From positions 1,114,910 through 1,178,909 of the forward strand of contig NZ_NJER01000001.1 of assembly GCF_002753895.1 (NCBI RefSeq): a stretch of DNA of 64,000 nt, read 5' to 3'. The notes beneath the pieces were generated by a model. That model was not told the origin of the DNA. It was given only the letters and a program-made list of their open reading frames with translations, and searched no databases. This document shows positions 32,977 through 44,347 of this stretch, piece after piece. Origin of the DNA: Halobacteriovorax sp. JY17 (GTDB lineage: Bacteria > Bdellovibrionota > Bacteriovoracia > Bacteriovoracales > Bacteriovoracaceae). The position numbers and the translations under genes were made by a program. Every line of letters starts with the position of its first letter. Position 1 is the stretch's first letter.

Positions 32977-33298
32977 AGTCTAAAATCACTTTCTGAAATG
33001 AAGGTGAAAGTGGAATGAAGTAGTATTTAGTATTCTTATAAAATTTGAGTTCTACAGATTTATACTTACCTGGTTTAATAGTAACCATCTCTCGTAGAAC
33101 TCCCTTATCTGTAACGATCTCACCTATTAGTTTTACGAGAGTTTTATTTTCAATAATAACACTTACTTTATTAGTTCTTTTCACAGGTGATAGAACCTTA
33201 AACTTATTTGTATAGGCAGTAACTATAAAAGCCTCAGACTTTTCAACTGAAAGGGTTGGAAGGCTAATGAAGAATAAAAAGAGTAATAGATATTTCAT
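32939..33298 (-). CDS. Small exported hypothetical beta-rich protein
   Basis: Signal peptide, 119 aa; overlaps the phosphoesterase start, so likely co-transcribed. Confidence 0.65.
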   Translation of the reverse strand: MKYLLLFLFFISLPTLSVEKSEAFIVTAYTNKFKVLSPVKRTNKVSVIIENKTLVKLIGEIVTDKGVLREMVTIKPGKYKSVELKFYKNTKYYFIPLSPSFQKVILDFGKKAYEIPSKE

Positions 33299-33398
33299 TT
33301 AATCATTCTATCAAGTTATTGAAATTATTTGGAACGGCAGATTTTTCCAAATGAAAGTCCTTATTCATCTCTCCACCCTAAGTAACCGAAAAGTAAGT

Positions 33399-33914
33399 AT
33401 GAGTAGACTACTATCCATATTCAAACAGTCAAAGAAATCTTTAAATTTTCTAAATAGAAGTGAGCACGCGTGGTTCTTTGAGTCTCAACAAGTAGCAGAG
33501 GTTTTTAGTACGCTTTACCTTGTGACTGAAAAGCATAAGAATGTAAGACAGTTTTTAAACCAGACAATCTTCACTCCAAGTAATGGGCAGTATGCTAGCG
33601 CAGTAAAAGCAAATGTAAATCTTATTATCATTTACCCTGAACTCACCTACTTAATGAAGTCAGGAAAAGCGAATCAAGCAATTGGAATTCTCTTCCATGA
33701 AATAGGTCATCTTATTCTCGATCATCAGGGAAGGGGTACTTCTAATGAACTCGCGCAAATTGAAGCTGATCTCTTTTCTCTTGAATTGGGCTACGGAGAA
33801 TTCCTACTATCTTTTCTAAATGAACAAAGAAGGTCCGAGCAAATAGAAAAGAGGATTTTAGCTCTAGAGAAAGTTCTTAGAATAAAGTATTCTTCTGATT
33901 CTCTTCAAAATTAA
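33399..33914 (+). CDS. Putative HExxH zinc metallopeptidase
   Basis: LFHEIGHLILDH followed by EADLF...LGYG (M48-like). Start chosen at the second Met. Confidence 0.6.
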   Translation: MSRLLSIFKQSKKSLNFLNRSEHAWFFESQQVAEVFSTLYLVTEKHKNVRQFLNQTIFTPSNGQYASAVKANVNLIIIYPELTYLMKSGKANQAIGILFHEIGHLILDHQGRGTSNELAQIEADLFSLELGYGEFLLSFLNEQRRSEQIEKRILALEKVLRIKYSSDSLQN

Positions 33915-34437
33915 GAATTAGATCATTAGAGAAATTCATCTCATAAATTCCATCATTACAAAAAACAAATCTAACATCTGAGACTTTTTGAGTTCTCTTA
34001 GATTTATTAAAAATAACTATTGGATAACGAGTCCCATCTGAGCAGAGCTTTTTAAAGTTCTGTCTTAGCGTCATTGAATTAAAAGAATCAACATGGTTGT
34101 AAATACTTCGAGAAGAGAAAGTGACAAAGTCTCCTGACTTAAGAAGCTCTAGAACATCTCCTGATAGGGCTGAAACACCAGTATTTGTATAGGCCTTACT
34201 CATATAGTTAAAAATATATGTAAGTGTAATCGAGGTCCCAATACAGTTATGGCAAGTCTCTTCGGGAACTTTACACATTGTAGCTTCACCACAGAGATCA
34301 GAACAAAGCGTATCATTTTCACCACAATAGAAGCTTATTTCTTTCTGATACTGGTCATTCCAAGAAGATTCAACAACTGCTGAAAAAGAAGAAAGAGTAA
34401 AAAGAAGAGAGAATATAAAAAGAGAATAAATTTTCAT
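33877..34437 (-). CDS. Exported Cys-rich hypothetical protein (186 aa)
   Basis: Signal peptide, eight Cys; start overlaps the stop of the 920-aa gene (TAATG). Confidence 0.75.
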   Translation of the reverse strand: MKIYSLFIFSLLFTLSSFSAVVESSWNDQYQKEISFYCGENDTLCSDLCGEATMCKVPEETCHNCIGTSITLTYIFNYMSKAYTNTGVSALSGDVLELLKSGDFVTFSSRSIYNHVDSFNSMTLRQNFKKLCSDGTRYPIVIFNKSKRTQKVSDVRFVFCNDGIYEMNFSNDLILNFEENQKNTLF

Positions 34438-37199
34438 TAGTTAACCCTTCTCATCGAGCTACATGAGCTTGGAACAGTATACTTCCCTACTCTGCACGAA
34501 TTTGTATCAGAATTACTATATGTTCTAATCGTAATTGGTTTATCGCAGCTAGACATTTTAACCTGAGCGCGAGAACCATTGAGAGTTTTTATACTAACAA
34601 TACTTCCGTATAACTCTTCTGTCAGTTTCTCAGCAATAGACTCTTCACAAGAGTCCTTCAAACAACGATCACCCTTTATAAGTGATCTGACACAAGACTT
34701 AGGAATTTCACCAAAACGTCTATAAGTTTCCGAAACATAATTAGGATTAGCGTCCCACGATCTTGGAATATTATGAGGATCTTTAAGTCCCTTATAAAGT
34801 CTAAAGACGGCTCTAAATAAGAAGAACGTTGGCCCCACTTCGCTAGATAAATGAGTCAAAGAGCTAGCAACACTTTCAAAGTTTAGACGACAACTAATAC
34901 ACTCAGAGTGTCCTCTTGTCGCATTATCATCCATATCAGAAGCTGTTCGAACATTTAGATTATTATCTTCATTCTCGTTACAAGCTCCAACACTTACACC
35001 ACCAAATCTATAATTATCATATGGACTATTGGCGCGTCCTGAAATTGAGACCATGCAAGGAACACCTAGAAGTGGTCCAAAGTCAGCAGCTAAAGATGTC
35101 GTAATACTCGTTCTATCATAACGAGTATCATATGAAATTCTTCCGTCCTTCACTAACTGATTAAATGAAGTAACTTGCCCTGGTTTTAAATCTAGTCGCC
35201 CGTAAATTACTCCAGGGGTAGCGACAGAAAGTGCTGCTTGAGACATATCAGTAAATAAGTTAAAGAGAATAGACTTTGTCTTAAACCATGGATCGTAAAC
35301 TTTACAAGCCGTTCTCTCAGCGTATGGATTAAAGAGAGCTGGAGTCTTAATTTCTTGTTCTAAGTTCCAAAATGTCGATGCATACTGAGCGACAGAATAG
35401 AGGTCGATAACTGACTTCAAAATTCGTCTTGAGCAATCACTTGAGTTTGCGCAAATAACATCTTCAATTGATTTTGATGTTGCAAATGTTTTCCATGCAA
35501 TAAGAGGCTTATTGGTTTTTAAGTAGTCTTCTATTTTTTCATTATAAGTAGATTTAAACTTATTTTCATAAACTTTTTGAACATACCACGGAGAAAACCC
35601 GGTTTTATCAAGAGTGAAACTATCATTCCAAATTCCCTTCTCATTCAACTTAGCACAACCGGCCATAACTTTATCGGCAATCTCTGAATAGAAGTCAAAG
35701 AGCTCTTTTGTCTTATTATCTGATATTTCAGATGCAAGTCCATCAATAAGCGTTGTCTCTCTTAAGACTTTCAATTTACCTTTTAAAAAACTAAATTCAT
35801 CATGATCGGCAAAATTAAACTCTGCACAGAGATAGTAAAGATCATTCTTAAGTTCAGTATTATTTGTTTCAGGATTAGAAATAAGAGTTGAAAATCTCTT
35901 CTCTAAGAGCTCTGATACTTTCTGAGAGCTAATGTTAGCCTTGGCTATATTTAGAGTTGAAATTGCATGAATTAATTTCTTCTTCATTAGAGCACGCGTT
36001 CCAGAGAAATTTTCTTTGAAGTTTACAAGCCAAGACTCTGCGTTAGCAAAACCACCAAGGTCTAATTCATCAACATTTACAGAAGTAAATGGGTCTGAAA
36101 GTAAATCATCTTGTGGACCTTCAGGAACATTGGATAGCACATCTAAATTAAGGGCCGTTTCTCTAAAGTCTTCTTTTGCAAACTCTCTCATTGCCTGAGT
36201 AGCAAGGAAGTCCCCATCGCATTTTGGAATAGTAATTGACTTACAACCATTTGGAACAATTAAAACAGAATCTTCAATTGCAACACCTTTAAAGACGCTC
36301 GCAAATGGAGAAGCTATTTGCTTCATCTCTGGTGCATTTCTAAATGCCCATGAGAAGTATAATTTAAGAGAATTCCAATAATCAAATCCCTTATCTTCCC
36401 ATCTCTTTTCTTTTATATTAGGTATTTCAAGTTGATAAGCAGCAACTTGTAAATTTGTTTGCGCTTTAAAATCATCACATGCAGCGAGGTACTTACTTGA
36501 GTCGAGAGCTGCTTTAGCAATTGATTCAAGAGCTGCTTTGTCAGGCTTTGTTCCATAAAGGTGGGCCTGTAGAGGAGAGAATTTCTTTAAGTAGTTACAC
36601 TTTAACTCAGTAACTCTCTCTTTATCTTCAAAATTCTTTTCAAGAATATAGCTATCTTTTGAGTGAAAATTATCAACTGTATAAAACGCTACAACTTTTG
36701 CGGCTGCAGATGTTTTCTTCGAAGTAATTTTCCAAATTTTTTCAATGTAGGAATCAAGACCCGTGCAGTATTCATCGTTACGACAATTTGCCATAACGTT
36801 CTTATAATTTCCCGGAAGATGTAAATCATCACGCGAGATATCTGCAGGTAGCAGAGGTAACTCTCTATTCATAATTTTCTCATGAATAAGTTGAATCATC
36901 TGAACAACAGAGTATCTAAAAACTTCTATTCCGTACTTAGTTAGAGCATCAGAGTCTTCACCTCTAAGTTTTGCTAGTCTATAAACAGCTTTAGCAACGT
37001 CAGTATTAGTGATAAGAAGAAAAGATGAATCAGTTGGGACTTTCGAGTCTAGAGCGCATCTCGCTCTATTGGAGAATCTCATATTATTTAGATCAAATTT
37101 CAAAGAATCCTTATCAACCGACATCCACTCAGTCCCCTGAGCGAATATAGGTAAAGAAAATGTCATACAGAGCATTGCTGCTAAAACTATTCTTCTCAT
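34437..37199 (-). CDS. Large exported Cys-containing hypothetical protein (920 aa)
   Basis: Signal peptide ending IFA-Q, GGAG RBS; no recognised family. Confidence 0.8.
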   Translation of the reverse strand: MRRIVLAAMLCMTFSLPIFAQGTEWMSVDKDSLKFDLNNMRFSNRARCALDSKVPTDSSFLLITNTDVAKAVYRLAKLRGEDSDALTKYGIEVFRYSVVQMIQLIHEKIMNRELPLLPADISRDDLHLPGNYKNVMANCRNDEYCTGLDSYIEKIWKITSKKTSAAAKVVAFYTVDNFHSKDSYILEKNFEDKERVTELKCNYLKKFSPLQAHLYGTKPDKAALESIAKAALDSSKYLAACDDFKAQTNLQVAAYQLEIPNIKEKRWEDKGFDYWNSLKLYFSWAFRNAPEMKQIASPFASVFKGVAIEDSVLIVPNGCKSITIPKCDGDFLATQAMREFAKEDFRETALNLDVLSNVPEGPQDDLLSDPFTSVNVDELDLGGFANAESWLVNFKENFSGTRALMKKKLIHAISTLNIAKANISSQKVSELLEKRFSTLISNPETNNTELKNDLYYLCAEFNFADHDEFSFLKGKLKVLRETTLIDGLASEISDNKTKELFDFYSEIADKVMAGCAKLNEKGIWNDSFTLDKTGFSPWYVQKVYENKFKSTYNEKIEDYLKTNKPLIAWKTFATSKSIEDVICANSSDCSRRILKSVIDLYSVAQYASTFWNLEQEIKTPALFNPYAERTACKVYDPWFKTKSILFNLFTDMSQAALSVATPGVIYGRLDLKPGQVTSFNQLVKDGRISYDTRYDRTSITTSLAADFGPLLGVPCMVSISGRANSPYDNYRFGGVSVGACNENEDNNLNVRTASDMDDNATRGHSECISCRLNFESVASSLTHLSSEVGPTFFLFRAVFRLYKGLKDPHNIPRSWDANPNYVSETYRRFGEIPKSCVRSLIKGDRCLKDSCEESIAEKLTEELYGSIVSIKTLNGSRAQVKMSSCDKPITIRTYSNSDTNSCRVGKYTVPSSCSSMRRVN

Positions 37200-37343
37200 T
37201 TAATCTCCAAATTCATTGCCTGTTTTAGCAGAATTTGAGTTCTCGTTAGTCTTTATTGAATTTTTTTCTCTATGAATATTCAATAAAAACAGTAAATTAA
37301 GGTACCCTTAAGGTTGCCCTTAAGAAGTACCAAGTTTTGCAAA

Positions 37344-37865
37344 TTATTGCATTGTACAACCATTCGCTTTGTTCATGATTGTCGTATAGAACATGATCAT
37401 TGCTTCATCAGCAGGAGTGAAACCTCTTCTAGTTCCACCCTCTTCTGTCATTAGTCCGTACATATATCTGTTGATTGCATAGTAAACAGATCTTGGTGTT
37501 CTAATTCTCTGAGTACATTGTCCTCTAGAATACTTAACAGTAAATCCCCAAAACTCAGAGTCTCCACCAGTTTGGTAACCTGATCCACCAGTATAAATAG
37601 TAGTTCCAGAGTTATTATTTTGATCCCCTTCACCAACGTTGAAAGATACTTCAAATCCACCATAATTATTAGTCACTGCATGAAGAGTACAAATTCCAGC
37701 ATCACAAGCAAGTTCAGCATCTTGATCAATTGCTAGAAGAATACTGTCATCAGCAAATCTTTCAAATTCAAATTCTCTCTCTCCACCAGCAAATAGGTCA
37801 TCAACATTCGTTGCGAATGTGAGAGATGATATAAGTAAGCTCATTGTTAATATTATTCTTTTCAT
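37344..37865 (-). CDS. Exported hypothetical protein (173 aa)
   Basis: Signal peptide, GGAGG RBS, four Cys, beta-hairpin-like FEVSFNV / WGFTVKY segments. Confidence 0.75.
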   Translation of the reverse strand: MKRIILTMSLLISSLTFATNVDDLFAGGEREFEFERFADDSILLAIDQDAELACDAGICTLHAVTNNYGGFEVSFNVGEGDQNNNSGTTIYTGGSGYQTGGDSEFWGFTVKYSRGQCTQRIRTPRSVYYAINRYMYGLMTEEGGTRRGFTPADEAMIMFYTTIMNKANGCTMQ

Positions 37866-37890
37866 AATTACCTCCGAAGTAATTGTCCTA

Positions 37891-39282
37891 TTAATTTTCT
37901 AATATTATTAAAGTTCCGCCATTAGGAATAAATACGTGGTTACTGTGGTACCCATCTGCAGTAAATTTCTCGATACACGCTAAAGGGCTTGCCACAGGTA
38001 GTCCCGTTGTTTCCCCACAGTTCAAAGAATCAGTAAATCTAGAGTCATCGTTATGGTTAACACTGTATGAAGAATTAGAGTTACCATTTGAAGAATCTTC
38101 ATGGTCTAAAACGAATTGTTCGTACGCAAGAGATGTGACGAATTGAACTTGGCACACCTGCAGAGATGGATCGTTGTTTCCATTTCCATTTCCGTTCGTA
38201 CTTCCGTTCGTATTTCCAGGAATGGCAGATATTGGGTGACATAACTTAACTCCCTCATCAACTGGAGTAACCTGATCTTCAGTCAGCTTCACCTCTAAAG
38301 AAGTTATGACCTCAATCGCATTCAAGTTCCATGGTCTAAATGTCTTACTATCTTCTTTAAAGTAATGTCTCACTCGACAAAAGCTTACGCCATCAACAGA
38401 ACCAACTTGAGGAAATAACTCGCTCATCTGGCTTGGAAAAATAGAAAGGGCCTCATCAAATAAATTAAAAATGTAATCATCTTCATCAGTACATTCAATA
38501 TCTGTTCGAGTTAAGATTTCAGCTGAGTCTACATAGGTTTGGCCAAAGAGTTGCTTATTTTTAAAACTATACTTTGGAGTAAATTCAAACTTACCCGCAA
38601 AATCTTTATTAATATTCTTCCAACATAGATCTACAAAATACTCCGTTCCATGTAATTCAGAACCGAGTTCAAAAGAGAGACTATTATTTCTAAGTACATA
38701 GTTTTCAGGAGTATGTGTTGCAACGACAAACCCTTCTCCATCAATAGAACCAGAATTATGAATTGCGATTGAAGTCTTAGCTTGACTAGTCCCTGCCCAG
38801 AAATTCTCATCTCCAATATTCTCTAGCTCTTCATTGTCAGCAAAGATTCTTCCACTATACTTCATGAAGTCTACATTATTTGGACCATCGCTAGTTCCTG
38901 AACAAATACAATCACAGCTTGAAGTCTCTGGCGAACAAGAGATAGAAGGGTTACAGGAAACAGCAGGGTTTGTTCTTAAGTAACAAACTCTCGAGTTTGG
39001 CTTCTCATGCTTAATTCCAGCGTTACAAGCATAGACAATTCCGTCACTTAAGCTTTCAGCACTAGATCCACACTCCCCCACAGAGTCGTGAGAATGATTC
39101 TTTAAGTGTCCATGAACAGCTGAGAAATCTACACATATATTAACGAAGTGAGGATTATTCTCACTTCCAGCGTGACAAATAGTAATCTTGTTTAACTTAT
39201 TATCACCGCAAATATTTCCCGCACGAACTGGTGCCGAAAAAATTGCAAAAATAAATAGAAGCGCTAGAGTTACCTTATTCAC
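37891..39282 (-). CDS. Exported Cys-rich protein, paralogue of 40921..41853 with extra KxxCH modules
   Basis: GTG start 2 nt after the upstream stop. Shares CNAGIKH, CY.RTNP..SCNPS, SCDC.CSGT, LGSEL.G.EY..D.C and FCRVR...FRPW with the 310-aa protein. Confidence 0.8.
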   Translation of the reverse strand: MNKVTLALLFIFAIFSAPVRAGNICGDNKLNKITICHAGSENNPHFVNICVDFSAVHGHLKNHSHDSVGECGSSAESLSDGIVYACNAGIKHEKPNSRVCYLRTNPAVSCNPSISCSPETSSCDCICSGTSDGPNNVDFMKYSGRIFADNEELENIGDENFWAGTSQAKTSIAIHNSGSIDGEGFVVATHTPENYVLRNNSLSFELGSELHGTEYFVDLCWKNINKDFAGKFEFTPKYSFKNKQLFGQTYVDSAEILTRTDIECTDEDDYIFNLFDEALSIFPSQMSELFPQVGSVDGVSFCRVRHYFKEDSKTFRPWNLNAIEVITSLEVKLTEDQVTPVDEGVKLCHPISAIPGNTNGSTNGNGNGNNDPSLQVCQVQFVTSLAYEQFVLDHEDSSNGNSNSSYSVNHNDDSRFTDSLNCGETTGLPVASPLACIEKFTADGYHSNHVFIPNGGTLIILEN

Positions 39283-39284
39283 AA

Positions 39285-40841
39285 TTACCTACTACACTTA
39301 ATTGACGGAAAAGCTTCAATGGTTCTTGCTGTATAGTCGTCTCCATAAAAAGACTTCTTAGAAAATTTAAGATTTTCTAGACTATACTTTCGGTCCTCTT
39401 CTTTAAGTTTGAAGTTAACAGTGAACTCTAAGAATTTATTACCATTCTCAATACAACTCCCTTTATCACTACAAATTTTTTCATATAGAGGTGGCCAGTA
39501 CTTATTATTTAAATAAGACTGTAGAGTTCTTAAAGATCTATCTACTCCATCAAGAGAGCCGTCAAAATCAAGTTGCCCTATAATATCAATTAATGGAATA
39601 GTTTGACCGTTAACAATAGTGTGAATAAGAGGAATGAAGCCAATACGACCTCTTGATGAAAGTCCTCCTATATTATTATTATTTAAAAATAACCTTCTTG
39701 TAATATCACCATCAAAGTATTTAAAATCAAAGTTTGGCTCTCTATACTCTATTCTCACTCTGTAATTAGAGTTTGCCTCTAGAACACCTTTTTCGATTTG
39801 TCTTCCTGCTCCGTATAGGATTCCTTGCCACTGTCCAGGGGCAACTGCTCCATCATACCAACTAGTAAGATACTCCCACTGACCTTCTGTAAATACTTCT
39901 AAAGTATGTTCTGCAATAATAGGTTGAGCATAGTCGCATGGAGAAGAGCATAGTCCACCAGAACACTTTCTCTCGCAACGAGTATCTACTACTGTAGGAA
40001 ATTTAAACTCTAATAATCTTCCTCTAGAGCGAACTTCTGGCTCAGCAAGATGAATTTCACTTACATTGAACTCTGATGGAAACACTGGTCTTAATACTCC
40101 GAAGTCATCAGCAGGCTTTACAAGTTCAGCAATTGGATTCACCGAGATTCTAAGCTCTGATCCACCGATAGCAACAAGGTCAGAGTTTTTTCCTGTAGCT
40201 GAATCGGAAGTATATATATTTAGGATTCCATTAAAGTCTTTTGCCGTAACACCTAACTCTTTTAGACCCTCAACAGTTTTACACTTTTGAGTCACGCCTA
40301 ATTCAACAGAGATATTGCTATTAAAGCCCGGTTTGAAATAACAGAAACGACCTGTAAAGTCCGCAGCGTGCTGAGAAATTCTCGTTATATCACAACCCGC
40401 TTGGTTTTCAGGGATTTGTAATCCTCCAGGCCCAAGTTCAGTAACCTTTACAACTAAGCACTTATTTAGAAATTCTCTCTTTAGAGCAATTTCTTCACCT
40501 TGATCAGCTGCTGAAATAGGATTCTTTAAATCTGAATTAATGATTGAACACTGACGTCTAATTCCATCCTCAGATAATGAATAGGTCTTATTCTTATTAT
40601 TTAAAACCAAGTCCTCTACACCGAGCGCCAGCATTATATATCTTCTCTTGGCCGCAGTAAGTTTACAGTTACTAATTGACGAATAAGCAGCCGAGCTTAG
40701 GATTTTTTCTGCTGTATAAAAAATTTCTTGCTCATATTCAGAAGAGATTGCAATATTCATTTGCTCAGGAGCTATAGCTTCACAAGCAAGTACGTAGCTT
40801 GAAGAGCATAGCATGAATAATGTAATTAATAGCTTCTTCAT
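39285..40841 (-). CDS. Exported Cys-containing hypothetical protein (possible lipoprotein)
   Basis: Start MKKLLITLF with GGAG RBS; signal peptide ends VLA-C. Confidence 0.75.
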   Translation of the reverse strand: MKKLLITLFMLCSSSYVLACEAIAPEQMNIAISSEYEQEIFYTAEKILSSAAYSSISNCKLTAAKRRYIMLALGVEDLVLNNKNKTYSLSEDGIRRQCSIINSDLKNPISAADQGEEIALKREFLNKCLVVKVTELGPGGLQIPENQAGCDITRISQHAADFTGRFCYFKPGFNSNISVELGVTQKCKTVEGLKELGVTAKDFNGILNIYTSDSATGKNSDLVAIGGSELRISVNPIAELVKPADDFGVLRPVFPSEFNVSEIHLAEPEVRSRGRLLEFKFPTVVDTRCERKCSGGLCSSPCDYAQPIIAEHTLEVFTEGQWEYLTSWYDGAVAPGQWQGILYGAGRQIEKGVLEANSNYRVRIEYREPNFDFKYFDGDITRRLFLNNNNIGGLSSRGRIGFIPLIHTIVNGQTIPLIDIIGQLDFDGSLDGVDRSLRTLQSYLNNKYWPPLYEKICSDKGSCIENGNKFLEFTVNFKLKEEDRKYSLENLKFSKKSFYGDDYTARTIEAFPSIKCSR

Positions 40842-40880
40842 TTCTTCTCCAAAAATCAGCATGAAATATTTTAAACATAG

Positions 40881-40905
40881 AAAAGTGCTGGGTTATCCCA
40901 GCACT
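40881..40905 (-). terminator. Intrinsic terminator between first and second gene of the cluster
   Basis: AGTGCTGGG-4nt-CCCAGCACT perfect 9-bp stem followed by TTTT on the minus strand. Confidence 0.8.
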
Positions 40906-40920
40906 CATATAAACTATTTA

Positions 40921-41853
40921 TTAAAGAGTAGGCTCTTCAATTGAAGTTTTAGTACAAACTTTAGCAGCTTGAGTTTTCCATGGTCTAAATTGATCTTTTC
41001 CACCTAGATCAGTCGCTTCAGAGAATGTGTATCTAACACGACAGAAAGTTGGAGCTGATTTACCTGGACCTGTGATGTTCTGACCACCAGTAGCGATTGC
41101 AGTACTGTAACCAAGACTTGCGTTAGTGATTAGAGAATCAGAATCATTACCAGCAAATACTGTTGAACCTGGAACAAAGTTAAGTGCGTTTGGTTGACCA
41201 GAAACTTGGTAGTCACAAACGATTTCTGAATTAACTTTAAGACCTGCAACAGCTGCGTAGCTAGCATATCCACCAGTTAAATCTTGAATTGTCGCTTCAG
41301 CTTTAGCTTCCCAATTAGTTTTGATTCCAGCAGTTGCGTAATCAATTTGTGGTCCTCTAAAACATACGTCTAAGTAGTACTCAGCACCAAAAAGCTCTGA
41401 ACCTAAATTGAAGTTTAAAGTTGTAAGTTGCTTATCAAAGTAGTTACCTGAAACTTTTCCGTTTGCATCAACGTTATTTGAAAATAAGAAGTTCTTATTT
41501 TGGTCAGCAGCAAAAGTAGCTTTTGTAGAAGATGGGTAAGTTTCGTTGTGGTCAGTCCAGTTAGCATAAGTTGCTTCTGCAAAGTCCATTAAGTAACTAC
41601 CGTCAGTTCCTGAACATACACAATCACATGATTGACCTTCTTCACAAGCACTTGGGTTACAAGAGTTTTCTGGGTTTGTTCTTTCGTAACAAACTACGGC
41701 AGCAGCTTTCTTGTGCTTAATACCAGCGTTACATGGGTAAATAGATGCCCCTGAAGAAAAAACAGAGAAATCAAAACTTACTTCAATAGCTGAAGCAGAG
41801 TTAGCTGCAACTAGTAAAGCGATTGCTAAAAAGGCTTTTTTTAATACATTCAT
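40921..41853 (-). CDS. Exported Cys-rich protein, putative abundant structural subunit (310 aa)
   Basis: Classic signal peptide (ANSASA-I), AAGGAG RBS, 11 Cys. Codon choice resembles flagellin/sucCD by eye (GCT/GCA, TAC, AAC). Confidence 0.85.
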   Translation of the reverse strand: MNVLKKAFLAIALLVAANSASAIEVSFDFSVFSSGASIYPCNAGIKHKKAAAVVCYERTNPENSCNPSACEEGQSCDCVCSGTDGSYLMDFAEATYANWTDHNETYPSSTKATFAADQNKNFLFSNNVDANGKVSGNYFDKQLTTLNFNLGSELFGAEYYLDVCFRGPQIDYATAGIKTNWEAKAEATIQDLTGGYASYAAVAGLKVNSEIVCDYQVSGQPNALNFVPGSTVFAGNDSDSLITNASLGYSTAIATGGQNITGPGKSAPTFCRVRYTFSEATDLGGKDQFRPWKTQAAKVCTKTSIEEPTL

Positions 41854-42328
41854 TTGTACTCCTTAAGTAAAAAAGCGGTTATTAAATAAACAAATTATAA
41901 AATTTGATTCATTCGTTTCTTTATTTAACTTAGATAAAATCAAACTGCTTCCATCTAAAATTAAATTACTTTTATTAACTTCTCTTTAATATCAATATGA
42001 TGCATAAAATCATCAAGTTTTCTAGACATTAAGTGAGAATAAAGTTCTGTAATTAAAGGGGGTTCTACACCTTTTTTTTAATCTTGAATCTAAATTTATT
42101 CTTAAGAGCATAGAAGTTGATTTTGGTAATTTTATTTACCAAAGATAAGCAGTTAATTTTACTGATAAGTTAAGACTACCTATAGACAATAAAAGCTATT
42201 TTCATAATATATAATTACAATAACTTATAACTTAAAGCAAAAGCGAACATAAAGAACAACTTTAGATAAGCATAATTTTTCAGGGCAAAAAAGGTCTTCT
42301 AAAAAAGTCTAAATATTTTACAGGAACT

Positions 42329-44347
42329 TCATAGTAATAAACGAATTTCCCTTAATGATTTTATCTCATCGCGGATTTTTGCAGCAAATTCAAAGTCTAA
42401 TTCTTTAGAGGCAAGCTTCATTTTCTTATTTAATTCTTCTATTTGTTTATCAAGAGACTTTGCATCTAACTCTCCTGAGAGCTTTGACTTAGGCCCTTTG
42501 GAAGTTTTATTTCCTTTTGCTCCACGAAGAGTCTCTATAACTCCCCCTGAGACTTTCTTTGAAATCGTAATTGGAGTTATTCCATTTTCTTTATTGTACT
42601 GCTCTTGAATAACTCTTCTTCTCTTTGTTTCTCCAATGGCCTTCTCCATACTCTTAGTGTTCTTATAGGCGTAGAGAATTGCTCTTCCTTCGGAGTTTCG
42701 TGCAGCACGCCCAATAGTTTGAATAAGCGATCTCTCTGATCGCAGGAAGCCTTCTTTGTCAGCATCTAAAATAGCAACAAGAGAAACTTCAGGAATGTCT
42801 AATCCTTCTCTTAAAAGGTTAATTCCTACGAGAACATCAAATTCACCGAGTCGAAGATCTCTGATAATTTCCATTCTTTCTAAAGTATCTATATCAGAGT
42901 GAAGATACTTAACTTTTATTCCAGCTCCTTGATAGTAACTAGTAAGTTCTTCTGATAATTTCTTTGTAAGAGTAGTAATAAGAACTCTCTCTCCTTTTTT
43001 AATAACTTTTTTAACTTCTATTAGTAAGTCATCAACTTGAGTTGTAGCGTCTCGAACTTCAATGATTGGATCAAGTAATCCGGTCGGTCTAATCACTTGT
43101 TCTACATACTCTCCCTCAGTTCTTTCTAGTTCATAATTTCCTGGAGTCGCAGAGACATAGAGAACTTGATCAAGTTTCTTTTCAAACTCTGGAAAATTTA
43201 ATGGCCGATTATCAAGAGCAGATGGAAGCCTAAAACCAAAGTCCACAAGGTTTTGCTTTCTCGCTCTATCCCCTCTATACATTCCACCAACCTGAGAAAC
43301 TGTAATGTGAGACTCATCAATTATCATGAGAAAGTCATTTTTAAAAAAGTCTATTAAAGTTGGCGGTGGATCACCTTCACTACTGCCTGTGAGATGTCTG
43401 GAATAATTTTCGATACCAGAACAAAATCCCATCTCTTCCATCATTTCTAAATCGAGAAGAGTTCTCTGCTCTAACCTTTGTTTTTCCACTAATTTCTCTT
43501 GCGACTGTAACTCTTGCAACCTAGACCTAAGTTCTGTTTTAATTGTTCCAATTGCCGTCTCAAGCTTCTTCTCACTTACAACGTAGTGGGACTTCGGATA
43601 AATAACTATCTTATTTAAACTCTGTAAGACCTTACCTCTAAGAGGATCAACAATTGAAATAGATTCAACAACATCATCAAAGAACTCAATTCTTATAACA
43701 TCAGAATCCTCAGATGCTGGAAAAACTTCAACCAGATCCCCTCGTACTCGAAAGCACCCTCTAGAGAAATCAATATCATTTCTTTGAAATTGTATGGAAA
43801 CTAGGTCCTTTAAAAATTGGTCACGATCAATTTCATCATCAATAAATAAACTCAACTTTTGAGATTCATATTCATCGGGAGAACCAATACCGTAAATACA
43901 GCTCACACTCGCAACGACAATAACATCATCTCTCTCTAATAGACTCCTAGTGGCACTATGGCGAAGTTTATCAATTTCATCATTAACACTAGCGTCTTTT
44001 TCAATGAAAGTATCAGTTCCAGGAACGTAGGCTTCAGGCTGATAGTAGTCATAGTAAGAGACAAAGTATTCTACAGCACTTTCGGGAAAGAATTCTCTAA
44101 ACTCCGCGTAGAGCTGGGCCGCCAAAGTTTTATTGTGAGCAAGAATAAGAGTTTTCTTACCTAGATTTTGAATAAGGTGGGCCATGGTAAAAGTCTTTCC
44201 AGAACCCGTAACTCCTAACAAGGTTTGCTCTCTTTCCCCTGCCTCAAATTTTCTAGTTAATTGTTCAATCGCGGCTGGTTGATCACCACATGGACTAAAC
44301 TCTGAATGTATTTTAAAAACGTTTTTTTTATCTTTCATGTTATTCAA
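42329..44347 (-). CDS. uvrB: Excinuclease ABC subunit B
   Basis: [52 protein letters not shown]-terminus. Confidence 0.98.

Follow-up and report, generated by a model that had tools for sequence, protein, structure and literature searches.

We analysed a module of six genes, termed A to F, in a 64,000-nucleotide stretch of the genome of Halobacteriovorax sp. JY17 (NCBI RefSeq assembly GCF_002753895.1, contig NZ_NJER01000001.1, positions 1,114,910 to 1,178,909 of the forward strand; hereafter referred to as the window). All six open reading frames (ORFs) are co-directional on the minus strand and lie within positions 33877-41853 (Table 1). The spacers measure 79 nt between A and B, 2 nt between B and C, 25 nt between C and D and 144 nt between D and E, and the genes E and F overlap by 1 nt in a TAATG motif. 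The longest ORF for B spans 39285-40862 (525 aa); the start at 40841 (518 aa) is the likely one, as it is preceded by GGAG 7 nt upstream and agrees with the starts of the orthologues. An original prediction made from this DNA had described six co-directional genes, each with a signal peptide and multiple cysteines, that are coupled by gaps of 2 and 25 nt and a TAATG overlap. The ORFs, their strand and these spacings were all found as described, and so were signal-peptide-like N-termini, here assigned by eye, and conserved Cys residues.

The N-terminus of each of the six proteins combines a basic n-region with a hydrophobic core and an AxA-like (small-x-small) site, a pattern that is kept in the orthologues. 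Going by these N-termini, all six products are probably exported via the Sec pathway. In most orthologues of B, a Cys residue immediately follows the signal-peptide cleavage site, and some clades are devoid of it. B is no more than a possible lipoprotein, as positions -3 and -2 suit a signal peptidase I site better than a lipobox. The mature proteins contain 11 (A), 14 (B), 17 (C), 4 (D), 22 (E) and 8 (F) Cys residues. Invariant among them are 18 in E, as judged from 19 sequences, 6 in F and 4 each in D and A. The numbers in D, F and E are even across nearly all orthologues. A has 11 Cys in 9 of 12 orthologues, and this odd number may leave one residue free for an intermolecular bond.

Table 1 Features of the six-gene module in the window and of module copy 1 in Bdellovibrio bacteriovorus HD100 (A' is a further A-family gene)
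Feature	Sequence	Position	Strand	Size	Description
Gene A	window	40921-41853	-	310 aa	probably exported, 11 mature Cys, predicted jelly-roll-like beta sandwich
Hairpin A-B	window	40883-40906	-	10 bp, 6 GC, then T-run	terminator-like, probable attenuator
Gene B	window	39285-40841	-	518 aa	probably exported; follows A
Gene C	window	37891-39282	-	463 aa	GTG start; A-family paralogue
Gene D	window	37344-37865	-	173 aa	probably exported; second codon-optimised gene
Hairpin D-E	window	37301-37331	-		hairpin and U-rich tract in the 144-nt spacer; second possible attenuator
Gene E	window	34437-37199	-	920 aa	probably exported, 22 Cys, most conserved member
Gene F	window	33877-34437	-	186 aa	probably exported; start overlaps E stop
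uvrB	window	42329-44347			six-gene module lies downstream
Bd0749	HD100			277 aa	A'; legacy name pilus assembly protein
Bd0750	HD100				B; legacy name hypothetical
Bd0751	HD100				A; legacy name putative protease
Bd0752	HD100				F; legacy name putative cation-transporting ATPase
Bd0753	HD100	713824-716520			E; legacy name hypothetical
Bd0754	HD100				D; legacy name putative protease

Two gene units inherited together

The module was followed through related genomes and metagenomes. Among the genomes of 40 relatives, A was present in seven and B and E in eight, and the genes were always adjacent; the genomes bearing the module represent four to five genera of the same family (Halobacteriovorax / Bacteriovoracaceae). 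A scan of genome contigs with a single protein returned two close relatives only, and a metagenome scan with an alignment was far richer: the alignment of E yielded 24 loci, in which the identity of E ranged from 84% down to 26%. When the E profile was run against 401 genomes of the phylum, 71 matched, among them 39 of the 100 genomes in the window's own family and 23 of 53 in a second family, that of Bdellovibrio.

Hidden Markov models (HMMs) of the five families A (which includes C), B, D, E and F were scanned over the loci fetched from the genomes of eight relatives, from 24 metagenome contigs and from ten additional genomes of Bdellovibrionota. All five families occurred together in 30 of the 40 tabulated loci (19 of them metagenome contigs), with Halobacteriovorax, Bacteriovorax and Bdellovibrio as host genera. 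The incomplete loci are either cut by contig ends or belong to a single clade (L026, L037, L038 and L042). The gene order is A-B-(A')-D-E-F in Halobacteriovorax and its relatives and D-E-F-A-B-A' in Bdellovibrio and some others, with divergent arrangements at two further loci (L051 and L056). The flanking genes vary as well, uvrB and the genes downstream of the module being syntenic only in close relatives, and an all-against-all clustering of the ORFs at these loci did not reveal any sixth family travelling with the module. The co-occurrence of the five families through rearranged gene orders and differing flanks is strong evidence of a functional link. The synteny comparison that had been recommended together with the original prediction thus identified a conserved block, which is kept together across loci in relatives down to 26% identity in E.

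Two units are kept within this block, A-hairpin-B and D-E-F. A always precedes B, and this pairing is maintained in 25 loci with a median spacer of 55 nt. D is located directly upstream of E in all cases (median gap 31.5 nt), and the median gap between E and F is -4 nt over 35 loci, with 15 of the 35 at -1 or -4. Most complete loci possess a second A-family gene of variable size and position, and this family has both grown and diverged faster than D and E. The largest expansion seen occurs at L060 (G235:C1:496000-513000), where six A-family paralogues are present, five of them in tandem after F.

Searches at a larger scale outlined the phylogenetic range of the module. The E profile gave 149 matches over 1.84 billion representatives, all of them E-like, and the A family comprised 134 clusters that lack a Pfam domain and, where named, all stem from Bdellovibrionota. 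Judged by the source names in these profile searches, the module is restricted to predatory Bdellovibrionota, as had been assumed from the beginning; every source name agrees except for two contigs of about 1 kb labelled Micromonospora. These contigs carry fragments of E that are at least 90% identical to E of B. bacteriovorus (cluster of P0285) and most likely represent Bdellovibrio contamination of the assemblies.

Two deviations from the common pattern were observed in the clade with incomplete loci mentioned above. Its members possess B (sometimes two copies), D, E and F without an HMM-detectable A. Near the module of this A-less clade lies a further ORF family (268-484 aa; seven ORFs, spread over three loci with L026 among them), which may constitute a very divergent substitute for A. 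In addition, E of L037 and L038 bears a C-terminal extension of 200-250 aa, resulting in a total length of 1123-1162 aa.

At the downstream end of the module in the window, a 187-aa ORF on the plus strand (33351-33914) is convergent with F and overlaps its 3' end by 38 nt. Its product has a HEIGH (HExxH) motif, no signal peptide and weak matches to M78, M48 and Lit-like proteins (E-values 0.002-0.02). The ORF is syntenic with the module in six Halobacteriovorax-like loci and absent from the Bdellovibrio loci.

Expression signals and the Bdellovibrio orthologues

An AAGGAG ribosome binding site is located 6 nt before the ATG of A, in keeping with the strong site ascribed to the first gene in the original prediction. 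For 1795 long ORFs of the same genome, relative synonymous codon usage was subjected to a principal component analysis; the low end of its first axis is occupied by the genes for EF-G, ribosomal proteins S1 and S2 and others of that kind. A was found at the 0.8th percentile of this axis and D at the 3.7th, and B, C, E and F were placed between the 35th and the 54th. The high-expression codons predicted for the first gene are therefore present, and they are shared by D. The codon usage argues for high expression of A in Halobacteriovorax.

The gene following B, which had been taken for a paralogue of the first gene with extra domains, is indeed related to it: BLASTP aligned A and C with 32% identity over 290 residues (E-value 1e-27), and C has additional N- and C-terminal segments as well as a Gly/Asn-rich linker. 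The terminator suggested to follow A was likewise recovered as a GC-rich 10-bp hairpin with a T-run (40906-40883). When the A-B spacers of 23 loci were folded, about 15 gave a GC-rich hairpin (-14 to -32 kcal/mol) with a T-run behind it, loci with the order D-E-F-A-B included. The position of the hairpin is constant and the sequences are unrelated. Such a placement, kept despite sequence turnover, is the pattern expected of a functional intrinsic attenuator, and the hairpin probably acts as one. Hence, the layout that underlay the original prediction, an abundant first subunit, an attenuating terminator and then a paralogue and low-copy partners, is real. A second RNA structure was predicted in the D-E spacer (37195-37350, minus strand; -42.3 kcal/mol, z = -6.6). 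This hairpin is confined to the genus, and many D-E gaps elsewhere are shorter than 30 nt.

With respect to transcriptional control, no sigma-28-type promoter was detected upstream of A in the window, and matches to the sigma-70 consensus were not above shuffled expectation. No Rfam element, and hence no cyclic di-GMP riboswitch, was found in the region 33000-42600. Just upstream of the A start codon (41860-41900, minus strand), a conserved stretch, TTTGTTTA..TTA..AACCGCTTTTTT..TAAGGAGTACA, is common to three Halobacteriovorax species (the window, L020 and L021); the rest of the AT-rich leader of 200-475 nt has diverged. The stretch does not match any Rfam family and may be an element of the 5' untranslated region or a promoter-proximal element.

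B. bacteriovorus HD100 holds two diverged copies of the module, Bd0749-54 (copy 1) and about Bd2925-31 (copy 2). E of copy 2 is CAE80707 / Q6MJ54, and the position of this copy was deduced from Q6MJ51 = Bd2932 and Q6MJ56 = Bd2927, so that its exact tags are approximate. The tags of copy 1 were identified via the coordinates and lengths given in Table S1 of Karunker et al. (PMC3627812). According to the RNA-seq data in this table, the genes of copy 1 reached 37.4 (A), 28.4 (D), 10.3 (B), 8.3 (E), 5.1 (F) and 0 (A') reads per kilobase per million mapped reads (RPKM) after 3 h of growth, compared to 0-0.9 RPKM during attack phase. The order at 3 h, with A and D high and B, E and F low, agrees with the two-unit architecture. 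In the literature searched, we found neither paper text naming the HD100 module tags nor a paper on a Halobacteriovorax transcriptome.

Next to the end of copy 1 in B. bacteriovorus Tiberius (L054, 641-2257), a gene for an extracytoplasmic function (ECF)-type sigma factor and two small genes are arranged convergently with the module. Going by the neighbourhood, this sigma factor is presumably the RpoE-like Bd0743 of HD100. The legacy names of the module genes (pilus assembly protein, putative protease, putative cation-transporting ATPase; in the current RefSeq 'protease') still spread to relatives, and none of these product names was supported by any family or fold search conducted here.

Orphan families and predicted folds

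None of the six proteins belongs to a known family, enzymatic or other. Searches against Pfam and NCBIfam gave nothing above chance for any of them, and the same held true for Pfam when 17 orthologues of B and 12 of A were submitted singly. PADLOC yielded no match, PHROGs returned two chance-level matches only (E-values 0.024 and 0.076), and profiles of the A and E alignments did not match any PDB sequence. The lack of a recognisable family, already remarked upon in the original prediction, thus extends to all of these resources. By sequence comparison, the module is composed of five mutually independent orphan families. A relationship of B to A, or of F to D, was considered and rejected, as hhalign found nothing to align but a short stretch at chance level or the signal peptides. 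D begins with an acidic stretch, is rich in Gly and Asn in its centre and ends in a conserved domain that is bracketed by Cys residues.

An AlphaFold2 model of E based on an alignment of 63 sequences reached a predicted local distance difference test score (pLDDT) of 81.3 and a predicted template modelling score (pTM) of 0.78. The model is mostly alpha-helical, with a beta domain at about residues 665-770 and a small C-terminal beta domain. Foldseek searches with this model gave a best E-value of 0.2 in the PDB (template modelling score (TM) < 0.2) and of 0.056 in BFVD, and the predicted fold of E is accordingly one that is not represented in the PDB. A likeness of an approximately 130-residue part of E to phage tail-tube or baseplate proteins was dismissed as noise (probabilities <= 0.10). 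Over the 63 sequences, the invariant positions of E are mainly Cys, Gly, Pro and aromatic residues; besides these, only N44, R95, E460, N624 and D636 are invariant, and there is no invariant His or Ser. For this reason, E looks like a scaffold rather than a hydrolase.

The AlphaFold2 model of A (12 sequences; pLDDT 63.7, pTM 0.67) is all-beta and forms a closed, jelly-roll-like sandwich. The mature N-terminus of A is a conserved strand with alternating hydrophobic residues (AIxLxFKFxVFSSG), which the model places within the protein's own sheet, and the polar residues N42, E153, D162, R274, E279 and R290 are invariant. Foldseek of the A model against the PDB gave nothing below an E-value of 1e-3 (best 3.9e-3, TM <= 0.30). 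Among the non-significant neighbours were PNGase F, CBM61 (probability 0.69), the sugar-binding domain of Fbs1 (0.57), Eph ligand-binding domains and also viral capsid jelly rolls. The best pilin matches, CfaE and the major pilin of Streptococcus pyogenes, had E-values of at least 9e-3 and TM <= 0.22. A comparison of A with pilin, curli, TasA and usher folds, as proposed for the first gene at the outset, therefore produced no more than two pilins at chance level.

A possible assembly outside the cytoplasm and its relation to known systems

So far, the genes were shown to be inherited jointly, to be arranged for a particular pattern of expression, to encode export signals and conserved cysteines and to lack known homologues; on this basis we infer a physical assembly, its disulfide bonding, its cellular location and its biological role. 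The reading that we favour, tentatively and a little short of an even chance, is that the proteins of the module join into a heteromeric, disulfide-stabilised complex located outside the cytoplasm, for which A, its paralogues and D would provide the building blocks and B, E and F the low-copy partners. The proteins would constitute a self-contained, Bdellovibrionota-specific set with a joint extracytoplasmic action, and disulfide bonds would probably lend them stability. From the first unit, the jelly-roll-like sandwich A would be made in excess, and the hairpin after A would pass only part of the transcription on to B and to a divergent A-family protein (C in the window). The second unit would supply D as a more abundant small protein, followed by E as a large helical scaffold and by F, the translation of which would be coupled to that of E. 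The structure may reside in the periplasm or on the cell surface, with the A-family proteins and D as its stoichiometrically major blocks, and may be anchored or assembled by B, E and F. That A and D would be abundant and B, E and F scarce follows from the codon usage and from the RPKM values of HD100 at 3 h.

Several points weigh against this assembly. The module is accessory, being present in 71 of 401 genomes. In the published table, copy 1 of HD100 is classed as silent in both attack phase and 3-h growth, with all genes below the threshold of 50 RPKM (PMC3627812), and in a quantitative proteome of predation the A-family protein Bd2927 of copy 2 is listed with 11 peptides at a log10 value of about 5.0-5.4, near the bottom of the scale (PMC12546842). 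The model of A is of only moderate confidence, the signal peptides were recognised by eye, and interaction, assembly and localisation are deduced from sequences and models. Furthermore, co-inheritance is equally compatible with secreted proteins whose joint action on prey does not involve a lasting structure.

A first alternative is a secreted complex directed at prey or other targets. Here, lectin-like jelly rolls of the A family would bind envelope glycans of prey, grazers or competitors, the paralogues would represent different specificities, and D, E, F and B would deliver or activate them. Most of the weak matches that Foldseek returned for A are glycan-binding jelly rolls, and the invariant polar residues of A could form a binding site. 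The faster expansion and divergence of the A family compared to D and E, the patchy, accessory distribution and the two diverged copies in B. bacteriovorus also point in this direction. However, every one of the Foldseek matches is non-significant (E-value of at least 3.9e-3, TM <= 0.30), we did not find a catalytic or toxin motif in the module, and four conserved partner families would be unusual for a lectin or an effector. The published data also do not list the genes as induced in attack phase or at 3 h (PMC3627812). We consider such a complex unlikely.

As a second alternative, the module may serve the predator's own envelope or development, as a conditional structure that would be produced only at an unsampled stage or under stress, such as late septation and exit, starvation, biofilm formation or host-independent growth. 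This would be in line with the slight growth-phase bias of copy 1 in the published HD100 data (from 0-0.9 to 5-37 RPKM at 3 h, below the threshold), with the ECF-type sigma factor gene adjoining copy 1 in Bdellovibrio and with the lack of a sigma-28-type promoter upstream of A in the window. Yet the sigma factor gene is convergent, not co-transcribed, and absent from the Halobacteriovorax loci, and the codons of A in this Halobacteriovorax suggest that it is routinely expressed at a high level. We therefore hold a conditional structure to be improbable.

Similarly poor prospects are given to the surface fibre or coat of the original prediction, in which A would form a disulfide-linked extracellular filament or layer, with C or A' at the tip or as a minor subunit, and assembly factors (B, D, E and F) would take it across the outer membrane. 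The sequence of major subunit, attenuator and paralogous subunits would suit such a fibre, with at least two A-family genes in most loci and up to six at L060, as would the conserved alternating-hydrophobic strand at the mature N-terminus of A, the odd number of Cys residues in A and a codon bias suggestive of abundance. The claim itself was not supported: we found no match to an usher, chaperone, curli component, type V pilin, TasA or secretin, and no outer-membrane translocator in the module. Neither a beta-barrel nor an ATPase or sortase is among its members, and no member matches a Pfam pilin, curli or TasA family. E, the sole protein of usher size, models as alpha-helical, and B is Cys-rich and does not have a C-terminal aromatic signal, unlike a barrel. 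In the A model, the N-terminal strand is already part of the protein's own sheet, and pilins reach a TM of 0.22 at most, none with an E-value below 1e-3. In addition, expression in the published HD100 data is almost nil in attack phase, the stage that needs prey-contact fibres. We arrive at this low estimate because the defining parts were sought and not found, because no plausible outer-membrane carrier is present and because the Bdellovibrio orthologues are off in attack phase. The secreted complex and the conditional structure account for the data about equally well. Finally, as the functional link is drawn from sequence data, the genes might in principle encode unrelated exported proteins that are neighbours by chance, a notion that is effectively refuted by the co-occurrence of five families in 30 loci despite reordering, different flanks and an E identity as low as 26%.

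Returning to the heteromeric assembly, a bolder version would be a new, self-sufficient pathway of Bdellovibrionota, in which a disulfide-cross-linked structure, extracellular or of the envelope, is built from A jelly rolls and D on a helical platform of new fold, consisting of E with F and B, that replaces usher, secretin and chaperone. This version is a long shot. If true, the module would stand for a hitherto unknown class of machinery for surface assembly in bacteria, one linked to predatory life; a prey- or environment-directed protein set would instead be an addition to the predatory toolkit. In either case, five orphan families are co-inherited across the phylum, one of them with a confidently modelled fold unseen in the PDB. 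Bdellovibrio and its relatives are studied as living antibiotics, and most of their secreted proteins do not have a known role. The HD100 tags, the two-unit architecture and the predicted stoichiometry render the module directly testable in a genetically tractable organism, and the legacy names 'protease', 'pilus assembly protein' and 'cation-transporting ATPase' should not be propagated. The families match none described, and the module is not discussed in those parts of the literature that we searched; the low expression in HD100 under standard conditions, as published, tempers the interest.

Among known systems, chaperone-usher pili (Pap, Fim, Caf1) share the layout of the module, with an abundant small beta-rich subunit first, an attenuating hairpin, then paralogues and low-copy partners, all exported by Sec. 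However, the usher (PF00577), an approximately 800-aa beta-barrel, was not found in the module, none of the six proteins having a Pfam match at an E-value <= 1, and the PapD-like chaperone (PF00345/PF02753), which has two Ig-like domains, was not matched when B, D and F were searched against Pfam and NCBIfam. The 920-aa protein E is predicted to be helical rather than a beta-barrel and has no fold neighbour in the PDB. Pilins of this system have an incomplete Ig fold into which a donor strand fits; A is modelled with moderate confidence as a complete sandwich, has no significant pilin match and carries the conserved N-terminal strand of alternating hydrophobic residues. With curli (CsgA/B with CsgE/F/G), the module shares a small operon of exclusively exported proteins without an ATPase, and D contains a Gly/Asn-rich segment. 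In contrast to curli, there are no Pfam matches to curlin repeats, CsgG, CsgE or CsgF, the alignments of D and A show no internal repeats, and the subunits would be Cys-rich folded domains instead of amyloid repeats. Type V (FimA/Mfa) pili, the pilins of which are made as lipoprotein precursors, differ in that A, C and D have AxA-type cleavage sites and not a lipobox; no FimA/Mfa family was matched in Pfam, nor did such a fold occur among the Foldseek matches of A.

Two further systems offer analogies. In F-like conjugation, the periplasmic Cys-rich proteins TraN, TraU, TraH, TraW and TrbC act jointly in the envelope. As an analogy only, the module likewise has several exported Cys-rich proteins, one of them large and with about 22 Cys. 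It differs in that no Pfam Tra family was matched at an E-value <= 1, that genes for an ATPase, a pilin or a coupling protein are not found nearby, the neighbours being uvrB and unrelated genes, and that the E model is without a PDB neighbour. In the chlamydial OmcA/OmcB/MOMP complex, exported proteins are cross-linked by disulfide bonds into a stage-specific supramolecular layer of the envelope. The module is not related to this complex in sequence or fold, and it is a fixed set of five families for which we propose that disulfide cross-linking may similarly join exported proteins.

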